Below are positions 149 through 5,340 of a DNA stretch of 5,340 nt, piece by piece. The number at the start of each line of letters is the position of its first letter. Positions within the stretch are counted from its first letter, which is position 1. The translations under genes were made by a program, and so were the position numbers. Under the pieces are notes generated by a model. That model worked only from the letters and a program-made list of their open reading frames with translations. It was not told the origin of the DNA and did no database searches. Source of the DNA: a virus (lineage: Duplodnaviria; Heunggongvirae; Uroviricota; Caudoviricetes); IMG/VR virus record IMGVR_UViG_2521172589_000005. The stretch is one strand, 5' to 3'.

Positions 149-364
149 TTACCAACCTGTAATCATTCTGGCAATGCTTAATGCTGCTGCTTTTTCCAGA
201 TTGGTGATATCCTGCTCCAGAGCGGACAGATTTTCAGCCTGCTTAGCCCTGGCTTCATTGGCCCATTTCAGATCCTGCGCTGCATTAATTTTCTGGTGCA
301 TCCACTCATAAAGTTCATCATCGGTATAGTCTGGCGCGATGATGACGGGTTCTCGTTTCTGCAT
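149..364 (-). CDS. ydfC: Small protein of unknown function, 71 aa, third gene of the dicB-type operon (YdfC-like)
   Basis: Intact 71-codon ORF in the six-frame track; translation is charged and helical-looking. GAGGA Shine-Dalgarno about 7 nt upstream of the ATG at 364. Position (third small gene after dicA on the same strand) and size match ydfC of the K-12 Qin prophage as I recall it (72 aa). Sequence identity not verified. Confidence 0.65.
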   Translation of the reverse strand: MQKREPVIIAPDYTDDELYEWMHQKINAAQDLKWANEARAKQAENLSALEQDITNLEKAAALSIARMITGW

Positions 365-393: not shown

Positions 394-522
394 TCAGCCG
401 TTAGATTTTGCCGAACTGGAAAGCGCCTGTTTAAATTCGTTGAAGCTGAGAGCTTCTTCGCCTTCGGCAAGACCTTCGAAGTATTCTTCGTAAGCCTTTT
501 CCATGATTGTGTCGAAATCCAT
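394..522 (-). CDS. ydfB: Small acidic protein, 42 aa (YdfB-like); below the 60-aa cutoff of the supplied ORF track
   Basis: Hand translation of the minus strand from ATG at 522 gives MDFDTIMEKAYEEYFEGLAEGEEALSFNEFKQALSSSAKSNG, stop TGA at 396-394. AGGTGA Shine-Dalgarno 5 nt upstream. Start lies 1 nt after the ydfA stop, suggesting coupling. Length equals the 42 aa annotated for ydfB in K-12 (from memory). Confidence 0.65.
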   Translation of the reverse strand: MDFDTIMEKAYEEYFEGLAEGEEALSFNEFKQALSSSAKSNG

Positions 523-523
523 A

Positions 524-679
524 TCACTCACCTGAGTTTCTTTCCAGCCAGCGACGGGCACCATTTTCGGTTTTAAACGTTTTGCTTTTGGTATACGTCA
601 TCGCGGTGAACGTGCCGTCCTGGTTGGGGAACACGCCACATACCAGAGATTCGCTGTTGCCAAGATCGATAGTATCCAT
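524..679 (-). CDS. ydfA: Small protein, 51 aa (YdfA-like), first gene of the dicB-type operon
   Basis: Within the listed minus ORF 524..733 the internal ATG at 679 has a GAGGT Shine-Dalgarno 5-6 nt upstream. Product MDTIDLGNSESLVCGVFPNQDGTFTAMTYTKSKTFKTENGARRWLERNSGE is 51 aa, the size of K-12 YdfA. The upstream in-frame extension to 733 has no ribosome-binding site. Confidence 0.7.
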   Translation of the reverse strand: MDTIDLGNSESLVCGVFPNQDGTFTAMTYTKSKTFKTENGARRWLERNSGE

Positions 680-792
680 GCTGACCTCATTTCCCCTTAA
701 CGCCGGGGTAGCGGAACTGTTTGCTGAGAACACCGTGCGGTGTCTTGATGGAAAGTAATTTAGAATAACCTAACATGAGAGGCAAGTGTTTT

Positions 793-828
793 TTGTTAGA
801 TTAGTCTAACAAAAAGAGTGGGCGCAAC
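793..828 (-). promoter_or_regulatory. Putative repressor-controlled promoter of the ydfABC (dicB-type) operon with an overlapping operator palindrome
   Basis: On the minus strand: -35 TTGCGC (828-823), 17-nt spacer, -10 ACTAAT (805-800). The perfect palindrome TTGTTAGA-ttag-TCTAACAA (793-812) overlaps the -10 and predicted start site. The same 7-4-7 core TGTTAGA-N4-TCTAACA recurs at 1305-1322 in the dicA/dicC intergenic region. Confidence 0.5.
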
Positions 829-847
829 TAATCACTTGAAAAGAATG

Positions 848-1255
848 TTATTTTATTGATTTATTTTTACGCGCTTTAAGCATTTCTTCGAAGAGTTTGT
901 TGAAGTTTTCTACTCTTGCGCGCATTTCAGACAGCAAGGCTTCCTGCTCGGAAGATGGAAGAGCATCGAATAATTCGATCAATTCTTTGTGGTTGGGAGT
1001 TAGCTCTGTTTCCACATGAAGTTCTTGTGCAGGCACTGGTGCCTTGTCTTCGTCACCAAACATTAGCCATGTAGGTGAGCACTTCAGAGCATCCGCTAAA
1101 GCAAACAATCGTTTTCCGACTGGCTGGGTTTCGTCTCTTTCCCATTGTGAAATTGTGACGTGAGCAACTCCAGCGAGGCGCGCAGCTTCTCGTTGTGTTA
1201 AGCGTAATTCTTTTCGTCGCGCCAGAACTCGCTGGCCTAGGGTTCTTGTATCCAT
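848..1255 (-). CDS. dicA: Prophage immunity repressor, XRE/cI-type helix-turn-helix, 135 aa (DicA-like)
   Basis: 135-aa ORF with a classic HTH (LTQREAARLAGVAHVTISQWERDETQP). Divergent from a 75/76-aa Cro-like gene and followed on the same strand by the ydfA/B/C-sized genes. Size equals K-12 DicA (135 aa). No recognisable Shine-Dalgarno before the ATG at 1255 and a TAGAAT -10 box lies only about 9 nt upstream, so the mRNA may be leaderless (inference). Confidence 0.8.
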   Translation of the reverse strand: MDTRTLGQRVLARRKELRLTQREAARLAGVAHVTISQWERDETQPVGKRLFALADALKCSPTWLMFGDEDKAPVPAQELHVETELTPNHKELIELFDALPSSEQEALLSEMRARVENFNKLFEEMLKARKNKSIK

Positions 1256-1277
1256 AGTTAGGTAATTCTAATTTTTC

Positions 1278-1322
1278 TTGACTTAGATATCCCGCGCACA
1301 ATAATGTTAGAAAAGTCTAACA
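1278..1322 (+). promoter_or_regulatory. Putative rightward promoter for the Cro-like gene with an overlapping operator palindrome
   Basis: -35 TTGACT (1278-1283), 16-nt spacer, -10 AATAAT (1300-1305). Palindrome TGTTAGA-aaag-TCTAACA (1305-1322) overlaps the -10 and start site. A degenerate relative, GTTAG-gtaattc-CTAAT, sits at about 1257-1273 near the predicted dicA -10. Confidence 0.5.
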
Positions 1323-1335
1323 AGAGGGGGCTTTG

Positions 1336-1563
1336 ATGCTTAAAGTTGACGCAATTACTTTTTTTGGCAGCAAAACAAAGCTTGCCAATGCCGCAGGAGT
1401 GAGACTGGCAAGTGTTGCTGCTTGGGGGATACTGGTTCCTGAAGGTCGCGCGATGCGTCTACAGGAGGCATCTGGCGGGGAGCTTCTGTATGATCCCAAG
1501 GTTTATGACGAATATCGTAAGACGAAGCGGGCGGGGCGGTTGAACAATGAAAATCACTCCTGA
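1336..1563 (+). CDS. dicC: Cro-like small regulator, 75 aa from ATG 1336 (76 aa if the TTG at 1333 is used); DicC-like
   Basis: AGAGGGGG Shine-Dalgarno at 1323-1330 with 5-nt spacing to ATG 1336. Transcribed divergently from the repressor. Size matches the 76-aa DicC of the Qin prophage. Confidence 0.75.
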   Translation: MLKVDAITFFGSKTKLANAAGVRLASVAAWGILVPEGRAMRLQEASGGELLYDPKVYDEYRKTKRAGRLNNENHS

Positions 1564-2068
1564 ACAGGCTCGTGAGGCTCTGGATGCCTGGATATGTCGA
1601 CCAGGAATGACACAGGAGCAGGCGACGATATTAATCACTGAAGCATTCTGGGCTTTGAAAGAGCGCCCGAACATCGATGTTCAGCGTGTCACAGATGAAG
1701 GTGGCGCGGTTGATCAGCGAGCGCTTGGCGTTAATCGAGTGAAGATATTCGAACGCTGGAAGGCTATCGACACCAGGGATAAGCGTGAAAAGTTCACGGC
1801 GCTAGTGCCTGCAATTATGGAGGCTATCCGGATTAATGATTTCAGGTTGTATCGTGAAATTAGTGACGGAAATAGCATCACGTACATGATCGCCGGGTTA
1901 AACAAAGAATATGGCGATGTGGTGGAGTCCGGACTGCTTTTTGCTGATCCTGCCGTAGTGGATCGTGAAACTGACGAACTTATAGAAAAAGCAATTGCTT
2001 TCAAACTTGCGTATCGACAGCAATACCAACAAAAAGCTGGATGGAATTATGAGCCTTCTTTTTGCTGA
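1547..2068 (+). CDS. YdaT-like protein (DUF1019-type, cII-like regulator or putative toxin), 173 aa
   Basis: ATG at 1547 overlaps the dicC stop (1561-1563) by 17 nt. The stretch IFERWKAIDTRDKREKFTALVPAIMEAI resembles the conserved core I recall for Rac prophage YdaT. Gene order repressor / Cro-like / YdaT-like is the known racR-ydaS-ydaT arrangement. Confidence 0.6.
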   Translation: MKITPEQAREALDAWICRPGMTQEQATILITEAFWALKERPNIDVQRVTDEGGAVDQRALGVNRVKIFERWKAIDTRDKREKFTALVPAIMEAIRINDFRLYREISDGNSITYMIAGLNKEYGDVVESGLLFADPAVVDRETDELIEKAIAFKLAYRQQYQQKAGWNYEPSFC

Positions 2069-3014
2069 ACGCCCACTGGTTATAAACACACAGCTTGCGA
2101 TGAAGATTGGCTTAAATGAAGCTATTGTGTTGCAGCAGTTGCATTACTGGTTGAGAGATACCAATTCCGGCATGGAATGTGATGGTGTTCGCTGGATTTA
2201 CAACACAACGGAACAATGGCTGGAACAGTTCCCATTCTGGTCAGAGTCAACGTTAAAGCGCGCGTTTGCAAGTCTGAAAACGCTGGGGCTTTTGCGTTGT
2301 GAAAAGCTCAATAAATCAAAGCGCGATATGACCAATTTCTACACGATTAACTATGGGAGCGAGCTTTTAGATGATGGCAAATTGAGCGAATCCATCGGTT
2401 CAAAATGCGCCGCTCCATCAGGTCAAAATGACACGATGGAAGAGGTCAAAATGAAACGCTCCATTGGTTCAAAACGACCCAATGTCATCGGGTCAAAATG
2501 GCCCGATGATCCTACAGAGAATACAACAGAGATTACTACAGAGAATAAAAACACTTTTCGTCCGGAAGCTTCGCAACCGGACCCGCAGACGGCTGAACAG
2601 GATTTTTTAATCCGGCACCCTGGCGCAGTTGTGTTTAGTGCGAAAAAACGCCAGTGGGGTAGCCAGGAGGATCTGGCGTGTGCGCAGTGGATATGGGGGC
2701 GGATCGTGGGTCTCTACGAACAGGCCGCCAGTGATGATGGCGAGATCATGCGACCAAAAGAGCCTAACTGGACTGTCTGGGCCAATGATGTGCGCACAAT
2801 GCGGATGCTGGATGGCAGAAGCCACAGACAAATTTGTGAAATGTTTGGTCGGGTACAGCGGGATCCATTCTGGGTAAAAAACATCATGAGCCCGTCAAAG
2901 CTCCGCGAAAAATGGGACGAACTGGTCATCCGCCTGGGGCGTTCACCTGTACAGCGTTGTGTTAATCATATTTCTGAACCGGATACAGAAATTCCGCCTG
3001 GTTTCAGAGGATAA
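2049..3014 (+). CDS. Phage replication initiator: lambda-O-like N-terminal domain, repeat-encoded linker, DnaT-like C-terminal domain
   Basis: 339-codon frame opens with TTG at 1995; the first ATG (2049) gives a 321-aa product and overlaps the upstream stop by 20 nt. The N-terminus (SESTLKRAFASLKTLGLLRCEK) has the winged-helix pattern of lambda O-type organisers. The C-terminus ends ...VNHISEPDTEIPPGFRG, closely matching the C-terminal tail of E. coli DnaT as I recall it (...NTVSEPDSQIPPGFRG). The middle encodes IGSK peptide repeats that are iterons at the DNA level. Confidence 0.8.
   Translation: MSLLFAERPLVINTQLAMKIGLNEAIVLQQLHYWLRDTNSGMECDGVRWIYNTTEQWLEQFPFWSESTLKRAFASLKTLGLLRCEKLNKSKRDMTNFYTINYGSELLDDGKLSESIGSKCAAPSGQNDTMEEVKMKRSIGSKRPNVIGSKWPDDPTENTTEITTENKNTFRPEASQPDPQTAEQDFLIRHPGAVVFSAKKRQWGSQEDLACAQWIWGRIVGLYEQAASDDGEIMRPKEPNWTVWANDVRTMRMLDGRSHRQICEMFGRVQRDPFWVKNIMSPSKLREKWDELVIRLGRSPVQRCVNHISEPDTEIPPGFRG
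2391..2500. repeat. Iteron array: five direct repeats, consensus about TCCATCGGGTCAAAATG, at 22-25 bp spacing, inside the initiator gene (putative prophage ori)
   Basis: Core GGT(T)CAAAA(T/C)G at 2397-2407, 2421-2430, 2444-2453, 2466-2476 and 2491-2500. Four copies carry the extended CCAT(C/T) left arm. Arrangement parallels the lambda ori iterons located within gene O. Confidence 0.7.
2511..2560. repeat. A/T- and purine-rich tract with three ACAGAGA repeats at 12-bp spacing, just right of the iterons (candidate DNA-unwinding element)
   Basis: ACAGAGA at 2514-2520, 2526-2532 and 2538-2544, followed by AATAAAAACACTTTT. Position relative to the iterons mirrors the lambda ori AT-rich region. 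Confidence 0.5.
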
Positions 3015-3477: not shown

Positions 3478-3714
3478 GTGAAATTAGCTATCAGGCTTCA
3501 ATTGCCGCTGGCATTCGCATCAAAGGAGAGGAGCATGGAAATAAAACCAGAGGATTAGTTAAGCAATATCGTTTTATTTCCGATAAAAGAGGATGACCCT
3601 CGTAATCAGGTTAATTTTCTTTATGAGCCATCGGAAAGACCATATTGCCATCACGCTTCTGTCCGGGTTGACGAAAAAGAGCGTCAGGTCCGCTGTAAAA
3701 TCTGAGGTGCAGTT

Positions 3715-3891
3715 GTGGAGCCATTTGACTGGATGCTCTCTGTGGCGAAAAGAGAAACCAGACTGGCAGATGATGTAAGGCTCTTGCGCCAGGAGGAACG
3801 GGAAAGGCGAAAAAATATAGAAAAGCTAATTCAGATTGAGCGTAACGGGAAAGCGCGGATACGCAGGGTGACAAAATCCAGAACTGAATAA
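3715..3891 (+). CDS. Small basic, coiled-coil-like protein, 58 aa (hypothetical); below the ORF-track cutoff
   Basis: GTG at 3715 with GAGGTG Shine-Dalgarno 5 nt upstream. Product VEPFDWMLSVAKRETRLADDVRLLRQEERERRKNIEKLIQIERNGKARIRRVTKSRTE, stop TAA 3889-3891. Competes with the listed minus ORF 3611..3943, whose translation looks non-protein-like. Confidence 0.4.
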   Translation: MEPFDWMLSVAKRETRLADDVRLLRQEERERRKNIEKLIQIERNGKARIRRVTKSRTE

Positions 3892-4159: not shown

Positions 4160-4336
4160 ATGGCTGATTTTGGTTCAACTAAATACAACGTCGGTTTTGA
4201 AGAATGGCATGAACTGTTAATGGACTATGCAGAGTTACGTGGTGGCAGTGCTGCTGATGCTGAAGCATGGCGTGATGATTATGAAGCAGGAAAAACTCCG
4301 GTCGAAGCATATTGTGATGAGTGGGGCGATGAATGA
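4160..4336 (+). CDS. Very acidic small protein, 58 aa (hypothetical)
   Basis: GAGGAGG Shine-Dalgarno at 4144-4150 and ATG at 4160. Product MADFGSTKYNVGFEEWHELLMDYAELRGGSAADAEAWRDDYEAGKTPVEAYCDEWGDE has 16 Asp/Glu in 58 residues. Stop TGA 4334-4336 overlaps the next ATG (ATGA). Confidence 0.55.
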   Translation: MADFGSTKYNVGFEEWHELLMDYAELRGGSAADAEAWRDDYEAGKTPVEAYCDEWGDE

Positions 4337-4648
4337 GCGAGGTTAATTATCAGGAAGGGCATGAAACGGCGGGGCAAGCAAAAACAGTGGCATGGCGATA
4401 TCGCTACGTGAAAAAAAGGCGTTACGGACTTTCAGGGGAAGTAGTGGTCTGGTGACTGGAAATATGTACCGAAAAAAGAGGATTGTAACGATAGGCAGAA
4501 CTATGAAATTCAGGCCTTATTCACTGCCCCGCCAGTCCCGGTTACATCAGAAGAACTGGTTAAAGCTGTGCACTTTTATGAACAACTAAAACGCGAAAAT
4601 CCACCAGCATCCGGAAACCTGATTACAGATTCCCAGATAAGGCAATGA
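4333..4648 (+). pseudogene. Frame-split gene: 40-codon ORF (4333..4455) abutting a 67-codon protein-like frame (+1, 4445..4648) that has no start codon; frameshifted pseudogene or recoding candidate
   Basis: ATG 4333 is coupled to the upstream stop; this frame ends at TGA 4453-4455 in a TGA-C context. The +1 frame opens at 4445 and encodes ...DWKYVPKKEDCNDRQNYEIQALFTAPPVPVTSEELVKAVHFYEQLKRENPPASGNLITDSQIRQ with no ATG/GTG/TTG before codon 42. The track ORF 4392..4589 in the third frame looks non-coding. Confidence 0.35.
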
Positions 4649-4818
4649 GCTACCTGGCGCAGAACGGGCTGATAAGTATGGGGAATGTTTTACGATGAAT
4701 ATTTAGACTAAAGAGTTTGTAACGCTATGTAAGTGATTTTTTCTGGTTTAGATATTTATATGTCCGGCTAAATTGAGGTGTGTTTAAATGTTATTGCACA
4801 TTGATTGTAGGGGGAATA

Positions 4819-5080: not shown

Positions 5081-5087
5081 GACTGCG

Positions 5088-5255
5088 GGTGCTTGAGGCT
5101 ATCTGCCTCGGGCACGAACACCAACGGCAGGTAGAGAAAAGCCCCAGTTAACATTACGCGTCCTGCAAGACGCTTAACATTAATCTGAGGCCAATTTCAT
5201 GCTAGACACATGTAGGTTAGCCTCTTACGTGCCGAAAGGCAAGGAGAAGCAGGCT
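5088..5255 (+). promoter_or_regulatory. hok mRNA leader with tac-like 5' element and Sok-target region
   Basis: CTTGAGGCTATCTGCCTC (5092-5109) closely resembles the 5' tac element of plasmid R1 hok mRNA (CTTGAGGCTTTCTGCCTC, from memory). TAGCCTCTTAC...GCAAGGAGAAG..GGC.ATGAA upstream of the start likewise parallels the R1 mok/hok initiation region. AAGGAG Shine-Dalgarno at 5241-5246. Confidence 0.55.
5140..5207 (-). ncRNA. Putative Sok-like antisense RNA (boundaries approximate)
   Basis: On the minus strand: -35 TTGCCT (complement of 5237-5242), 17-nt spacer, -10 TAACCT (complement of 5214-5219), the same layout as the R1 sok promoter (TTGCGC-17-TATCCT). Transcript would be antisense to the hok leader. 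The 3' end is not defined; there is a GCGTC/GACGC hairpin near 5157-5172 but no clean U-tract. Confidence 0.4.
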
Positions 5256-5340
5256 ATGAAGCAGCAAAAGGCGATGTTAATCGCCCTGATCGTCATCTGT
5301 TTAACCGTCATAGTGACGGCACTGGTAACGAGGAAAGACC
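5256..5340 (+). CDS. hokD: Hok-family type I toxin, N-terminal 28 codons only (gene runs off the window end)
   Basis: ATG at 5256 with AAGGAG 9 nt upstream. Translation MKQQKAMLIALIVICLTVIVTALVTRKD matches the HokD (RelF)/Gef N-terminus and transmembrane segment as I recall them. Location on the dicC side of a Qin-like prophage fits hokD. Confidence 0.8.
   Translation, partial: MKQQKAMLIALIVICLTVIVTALVTRKD

Follow-up and report, generated by a model that had tools for sequence, protein, structure and literature searches.

The 5,340-nucleotide stretch analysed here (the window) carries a prophage repressor gene with a copy of the same palindrome on either side, raising the question of whether one repressor gates two outward operons, a dicB-type operon to the left and a Cro/YdaT/replication operon to the right. 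A first-pass annotation, made from the letters of the window, had proposed exactly this. Single-repressor control matches what is known of the Qin prophage and is supported by homology and comparative conservation, and the locus, as modelled below, is very probably the immunity switch of a Qin-like (DicA/DicC-type) lambdoid E. coli prophage beside ompW. The DicA/DicC/dicBp immunity region of Qin was reportedly treated by Bejar et al. in 1986 and 1988. The switch logic is already known: our model amounts to the published DicA/DicC/dicB model applied to a close relative, is unsurprising to specialists, has small practical value and opens no new question. Sequence, positions, conservation and co-variation were obtained here; binding, repression, autoactivation and the leaderless mRNA come from Qin only. 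Qin operator assignments follow Yun 2012 (PMC3441716) and Ragunathan 2023 (PMC10448788).

The prophage locus and its two perfect palindromes

Megablast with the whole window recovers 99.9% identical DNA in E. coli chromosomes. In strain 1EC213, the equivalent region belongs to a lambdoid prophage adjoining ompW, an insertion site that differs from that of Qin. RefSeq orders its left part as int, xis, exo, ydfD, dicB, ydfC, ydfB, DUF1391 (ydfA) and the HTH repressor; divergent from the repressor are a Cro/CI-family gene, a YdaT-family gene, an O-like gene and DUF977, with hokD, rem, rusA and an antiterminator beyond. The ydfABC-dicF-dicB-ydfD operon lies on the same strand as the repressor gene and directly downstream of it (RefSeq, 99.9% identical locus); ydfA, ydfB and ydfC form its start, and dicF, dicB and ydfD fall beyond the window. 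DicF RNA itself is found between ydfC and dicB (locus L001, 5784-5835, 76.7 bits). Pfam matches in the window comprise HTH_3 (repressor), P22_Cro (Cro-like protein), YdaT_toxin and DUF1391, and related phage records name the two regulators dicA and dicC. The YdaT-family and O-like genes are assigned to the Cro-like operon because each overlaps the preceding gene. The rem gene is annotated ~290 bp past the right end of the window (RefSeq annotation only).

Common to this locus and Qin are the gene order dicC <- -> dicA -> ydfABC-dicF-dicB-ydfD, a 135-aa repressor and a rem gene in the prophage. The Cro-side operon is intact here, with YdaT and an O-like gene carrying iteron-like repeats, whereas Qin retains only the ydfX/ydfW remnants.

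Table 1. Genes, promoters and predicted or candidate operator sites of the switch region, in window coordinates
Feature	Position	Strand	Basis or detail
ydfC	149-364	-	RefSeq annotation, Pfam
ydfB	394-522	-	RefSeq annotation, Pfam
ydfA	524-679	-	RefSeq annotation, Pfam
Predicted dicBp-like (PL-like) promoter	757-785	-	-35 TTGCCT (785-780), 17 nt, -10 TAAATT (762-757)
Proximal dicB-side operator, degenerate	758-775	.	ATTTAGAATAACCTAACA on the plus strand; TGTTAGGTTATTCTAAAT in the dicB direction
Distal dicB-side operator, perfect palindrome	794-811	.	Half-sites; fixed position relative to -35
Candidate weak third dicB-side site	816-833	.	7/12; half-site CTAATC at 828-833
DicA-type repressor, 135 aa	848-1255	-	HTH_3 N-terminal domain, helical C-terminal part
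Oa-type degenerate operator	1256-1273	.	Abuts repressor ATG, includes TAGAAT
Repressor promoter -10 box, TAGAAT	1265-1270	-	9 nt before ATG
Predicted P_dicC-like (PR-like) promoter	1278-1305	+	TTGACT (1278-1283), 16 nt, AATAAT (1300-1305); 10/12 match
Candidate weak middle site, Om-like	1281-1298	.	ACTTAGATATCCCGCGCA, 7/12; over Cro-like -35
Oc-type operator, perfect TGTTAG-N6-CTAACA	1305-1322	.	Qin Oc half-sites and position
DicC/Cro-like gene, P22_Cro family	1336-1563	+	84% identity to Qin DicC
YdaT-family gene	1547-2068	+	ORF, Pfam, RefSeq
O-like replication gene	2049-3014	+	ORF, Pfam, RefSeq

Two copies of TGTTAGA-N4-TCTAACA had been placed on either side of the repressor gene, and both placements are correct: TGTTAGATTAGTCTAACA occupies 794-811 and TGTTAGAAAAGTCTAACA occupies 1305-1322. 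When up to 3 mismatches are allowed, the window yields 3 matches where 0.23 are expected, a number reached in 0 of 200 shuffles, and the third match is 758-775. Across 17 kb of the same prophage there are no other perfect copies and no further good ones, the single 2-mismatch match, within a tRNA gene, being taken as chance.

Conservation was followed in a population set of 80 viral-contig loci with repressors at least 99% identical, using site-anchored counts because an A run on the dicB side differs by 1 bp in length among loci. At both perfect sites, 79/80 loci keep the TGTTAG and CTAACA arms intact, and the central six bases take 11 variants at 794-811 and 6 variants at 1305-1322. Since the half-sites stay constant and the central six bases do not, and since arm position 7 is not conserved, the palindromic operator stands with a conserved unit of 6-6-6 in place of the 7-4-7 originally described, and the half-site core common to both sites is TGTTAG-N6-CTAACA. 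Of the degenerate sites, 1256-1273 is unchanged in 80/80 and 758-775 in 78/80. The centre thus behaves like a stretch that is not read base by base. The P22 operator, ATTTAAG-N4-CTTAAAT, likewise needs no fixed sequence at its centre. Both 794-811 and 1305-1322 are predicted to be repressor-binding sites.

The protein predicted to bind them shares 57% identity with Qin DicA along all 135 residues. Its residues 1-71 match the homologous N-terminal domain of P22 C2 (E 1e-18) with the same numbering; V33, S36, Q37, W38, E39 and R40 are common to both, and at position 32 this repressor has H where P22 has N. As in P22, the operators are 18 bp with a free centre and the accompanying Cro-like protein belongs to the P22_Cro family; unlike P22 C2, the repressor lacks a C-terminal S24 self-cleavage domain and faces a different half-site sequence. 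Pfam returns HTH_3 only, with no match to Peptidase_S24 in the repressor, and direct RecA-driven induction is therefore not expected.

Comparison across genera ties the two regulatory regions together. Repressors of the Enterobacter, Pantoea and Erwinia loci keep the same recognition helix with a different, P22-like helix 2, and their sites at both promoters switch together to a CCTTAGG...CCTAAG type; both regions are therefore tied to the same protein. In Escherichia, Citrobacter and Buttiauxella, a four-site layout is held at fixed distances, with Oc centred at -58.5 and Oa at -9.5 from the repressor ATG and the two downstream sites flanking a conserved -35. Loci L011-L013 were omitted from the spacing comparison owing to their disrupted repressor genes; the Campylobacter matches L014-L025, which cover only repressor residues 82-115, were excluded. 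In the former (one E. coli, two Shigella flexneri), the repressor is broken by frameshifts or stops and the Oc-type site is kept or lightly altered.

Predicted promoter and operators of the dicB-type operon

The leftward promoter is most likely the 785-780/762-757 pair, with a predicted start near 750, because the K-12 dicBp fusion arm aligns to it and because its layout is kept across genera. Toward ydfA the window reads TTTTTGTTAGACTAATCTAACAAAAAACAC-TTGCCT-ctcaTGTTAGGTTATTC-TAAATT, and the pair is orthologous to TTGACC-17-TAATCT of K-12 dicBp. The homology arm of the in-locus K-12 fusion, CACTTGACCGATATGTTAGTCATGGCTAATCTTGTTTGCA, ends a few bases past the -10 (Ragunathan 2023, PMC10448788). 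Among the 80 close relatives, 79 retain TAAATT as the -10. In this layout, 8 nt separate a first operator from a TTGnnn -35; a second operator lies in the 17-nt spacer that follows, and its outer arm is overlapped by a TAAATT or TAATCT -10. The arrangement recurs without change of spacing in Qin, E. ruysiae, E. albertii, two Citrobacter, Buttiauxella, Enterobacter, Pantoea and Erwinia. Conservation of this dicBp-type promoter is ungapped across Escherichia, Citrobacter, Buttiauxella, Enterobacter, Pantoea and Erwinia, and the position of the distal operator relative to the -35 is constant in the six genera.

The first-pass annotation had instead placed the left palindrome over the leftward -10, which calls for a promoter of TTGCGC (827-822), 18 nt and TAATCT (804-799) shut off by single-site occlusion. 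The TAATCT in the palindrome centre is indeed the same hexamer as the K-12 dicBp -10, but it sits in the variable operator centre, where it is found in 10/80 close relatives and CAATCT in 63/80, as against 79-80 of 80 for the 785-780/762-757 pair. The proposed -35 reads ATTCCC in 13 of these loci and is missing from other genera, the promoter scan does not report the combination, and the K-12 dicBp homology arm aligns to the downstream promoter. We consider this placement highly improbable and rejected it on the population and cross-genus data.

With the promoter at 785-780/762-757, the perfect palindrome ends 8 bp upstream of the -35, at ~-44 to -61 from the predicted start, and the degenerate 758-775 site, a fourth site absent from the earlier annotation, lies within the spacer at ~-8 to -25, where its outer half-site also serves as the -10. 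The latter is 89% complementary to the 1256-1273 site. The two left sites are 36 bp apart, a non-integral number of helical turns, and a strongest site upstream of the -35 is unusually placed for simple occlusion. Their regulatory role is suggested by sequence and by a Qin reporter: a portable dicBp fragment, running from the dicA stop codon to ~20 nt past the -10, is repressed 22-fold by DicA (Ragunathan 2023, PMC10448788). That fragment carries the two Qin dicB-side sites orthologous to 794-811 and 758-775. Each of these Qin sites departs from TGTTAG-N6-CTAACA at 2 positions, in contrast to the two perfect main operators here and to the relatives of the ompW prophage, which likewise retain a perfect distal site; the mismatched sites (2878-2930 of the K-12 Qin locus, L002, versus window 758-811) may make dicB control weaker in Qin. 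The Reg-Seq authors class the K-12 DicA site for dicB as low-evidence, with its location unknown; intact relatives now pin down the positions of DicA sites at the dicB-operon promoter, showing a perfect site upstream of the -35 and a weaker one over the -10.

A different function for the palindromes, as RNA hairpins acting in termination or stabilisation of the repressor mRNA, is hardly credible. With its T5/A6 flanks the left copy could fold into an 11-bp hairpin directly after the repressor stop codon (z -2.5); the stem is A/U-rich and lacks a U tail, however, and the terminator scan found nothing there. The right-hand copy sits at a transcription start, and conservation in the 80 loci follows the half-sites with no compensatory stem changes. 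The terminator or hairpin reading of the left palindrome was rejected for want of a U tail and a terminator match and because half-sites, not pairing, are conserved. At the DNA level, the T5 and A5-6 runs (790-815) extend the left operator to an 11-4-11 palindrome, and the A run just before the -35 looks like a UP-element proximal subsite. Repressor bound at the left palindrome may also block alpha-subunit contact, which is speculative.

Predicted divergent promoters of the Cro-like and repressor genes

On the right, TTGACT-16-AATAAT is the sole consensus promoter returned by the promoter scan and is orthologous to the Qin dicC promoter. As annotated, the palindrome lies over its -10 and start, covering the last -10 base and the predicted +1 at ~1312. 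The Cro-like transcript should accordingly begin near 1312, within the operator, giving a 24-nt leader; the Shine-Dalgarno of the gene, GAGGGGG, is at 1324-1330. The window aligns without gaps to the Qin dicA-dicC spacer, which in K-12 reads CAT-AGTTAGCTAATGCTAAAT-...TTGACT-17-TATCTT-GTTAGTTATGACTAACAA, the last element being Oc, and the perfect palindrome stands in the place of Oc. The Qin-type Oc, TTGTTAG-N6-CTAACAA over the -10/+1 of the dicC promoter, thus has its equivalent at 1305-1322. The half-sites TGTTAG/CTAACA lie at the same distances from the genes as in Qin, with Oa at the ATG, and the dicBp -35/-10 layout and a leaderless-type repressor start region are likewise the same.

Oc has been characterised in Qin. 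DicA binds the cloned site, TTGTTAGTCATAACTAACAA, in vivo, and a single A>C substitution in the CTAACA half abolishes binding; crude-extract gel shifts with the dicA promoter region give a DicA-specific band (Yun 2012, PMC3441716). In the same study Oc overlaps the dicC -10, the dicC start is mapped by 5'RACE, and DicA represses dicC.

The repressor gene reads in the opposite direction from a weaker start. The sequence before its ATG (1255, minus strand), AAAAATTAGAATTACCTAACT, contains no Shine-Dalgarno, and the TAGAAT box (1270-1265) ends 9 nt upstream with a poor -35, in agreement with the first-pass annotation. All relatives compared have a TAGAAT-type box at 8-9 nt from the ATG, and the box here is better than that of Qin (TAGCAT). 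A leader of 0-4 nt, leaderless or nearly so, is predicted. Homology lends weight to the leaderless transcript proposed earlier, the Qin dicA mRNA being leaderless by dRNA-seq and one of only five E. coli mRNAs with leaders <10 nt; the racR and ymfK prophage repressors are also among the five (Romero 2014, PMC4681348).

Next to the ATG, the degenerate site suspected at ~1257-1273 is present as AGTTAGGTAATTCTAATT at 1256-1273. It corresponds to Qin Oa, and Qin Oa and Om, tested singly, show no DicA binding in vivo (Yun 2012, PMC3441716). Its position over the repressor -10 and start points most readily to a role in turning off repressor synthesis, which the Cro-like protein, or repressor at high level, would exert from there. 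In ChIP-seq, the strongest DicC peaks flank dicA and share a palindromic motif, TTNG...CNAA, and DicC induction lowers dicA 48-84-fold; the main text of the ChIP compendium paper mentions neither DicA nor DicC.

How the repressor would support its own synthesis depends on the geometry of the right-hand side. The one strong site there has its centre 58.5 bp from the repressor ATG (~55-58 bp upstream of the predicted repressor start), unlike lambda, where the activating operator adjoins the repressor -35 with its centre at ~-42. In Qin the dicA promoter is inactive without DicA (Yun 2012, PMC3441716). One account is that the repressor raises its own promoter indirectly, by blocking the strong Cro-like promoter and removing a competing polymerase, without contacting RNA polymerase in the way that lambda CI does from OR2. 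We regard such relief of promoter competition as a serious alternative to direct activation, though as a tentative one, a little short of evenly balanced. It is suggested by the site at ~-57, away from the -42 of lambda CI, by the 7 bp that separate the Cro-like -35 (1278-1283) from the repressor -10 (1270-1265), so that polymerase footprints must overlap, and by the DicA-dependence of dicA transcription in Qin. A centre near -57 is nevertheless still compatible with alpha-subunit contact, and Yun et al. (PMC3441716) favour direct activation.

A model of the switch and its relation to known systems

In the model that we propose, a short non-cleavable HTH repressor, a DicA homologue and presumably a dimer, would bind 18-bp sites with the core TGTTAG-N6-CTAACA. 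On 1305-1322 it would occlude RNA polymerase and keep the Cro-like/YdaT/O-like operon off, and 794-811 (upstream of the -35) with the weaker 758-775 (spacer and -10) would jointly shut off ydfABC-dicF-dicB-ydfD. The repressor gene itself would be transcribed from its own weak promoter, with TAGAAT and a poor -35, into an mRNA that has little or no leader, and, the two promoters being back to back, repressor on the right-hand site would favour its own synthesis, whether directly or by relief of competition. The Cro-like protein probably occupies the same sites and, at 1256-1273 over the repressor promoter, would turn the repressor off, making the switch bistable. The roles of the weak sites and the mechanism of autoactivation are those that we infer.

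Such an arrangement resembles lambda in that one repressor holds two outward promoters flanking its own gene, with a divergent Cro gene. A leaderless repressor mRNA, a repressor supporting its own synthesis, a Cro protein sharing the operators, and bistability are further likenesses that, for this locus, are drawn from sequence or from Qin. It differs in its unrelated operator sequence, in having one strong site per side against three graded ones, in an activating site at ~-57 from the repressor start against -42, and in a repressor that, lacking S24, is non-cleavable and whose known release route is the antirepressor Rem. In Qin, dicBp is released by Rem, urea and heat, mitomycin C gives no induction, and neither spontaneous nor urea induction needs RecA (Ragunathan 2023, PMC10448788).

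Lambda carries three operators per side ~23-24 bp apart. The candidate middle site on the right (1281-1298) lies 25 and 24 bp from its neighbours, and a clearer site occupies the equivalent position in the Pantoea/Enterobacter group; the far-left candidate (816-833) is 22 bp from the distal operator and keeps a TTAG core in two divergent haplotype families. Each is a 7/12 match, no more than chance could give.

RacR/YdaS/YdaT of Rac and YmfK of e14 also involve short prophage repressors with leaderless mRNAs, and they share a divergent Cro-like gene followed by a YdaT-family gene. They differ in belonging to another repressor family, in using other operators and in having no dicB operon downstream of the repressor.

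A further extension would have repressor oligomers bridge the two palindromes, 511 bp apart, in a loop like that between lambda OL and OR, loading 758-775 and 1256-1273, with co-resident DicA-type prophages cross-repressing each other's dicB and cro operons. We consider this combination unlikely; if true, the loop would tighten dicB repression and cap repressor synthesis. Its second part, cross-repression, is possible on sequence grounds because Qin DicA and the present repressor share half-sites and recognition-helix residues. The residues common to the two proteins (window 848-1255; L002 2435-2842) are H32, V33, S36, Q37, W38, E39 and R40.

Outside the switch region, the O-like gene contains five 23-bp repeats arranged head-to-tail at 2393-2508 with the core GGTCAAAATG, of which 4 occurrences with at most one mismatch are found against 0.47 expected; the array looks like an iteron-type origin, similar to lambda ori inside gene O. 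RefSeq lists two pseudogenes, at 3568-3891 and 4333-4698, one with an internal stop and the other frameshifted with an internal stop, and on their account the prophage is probably decaying, though the switch itself has stayed intact. A type I toxin-antitoxin pair lies at the window's right end (5087-5261, plus strand, and 5256-5340), with a sok antisense RNA (Rfam RF01794, 107.8 bits) overlapping the beginning of the hokD toxin gene.
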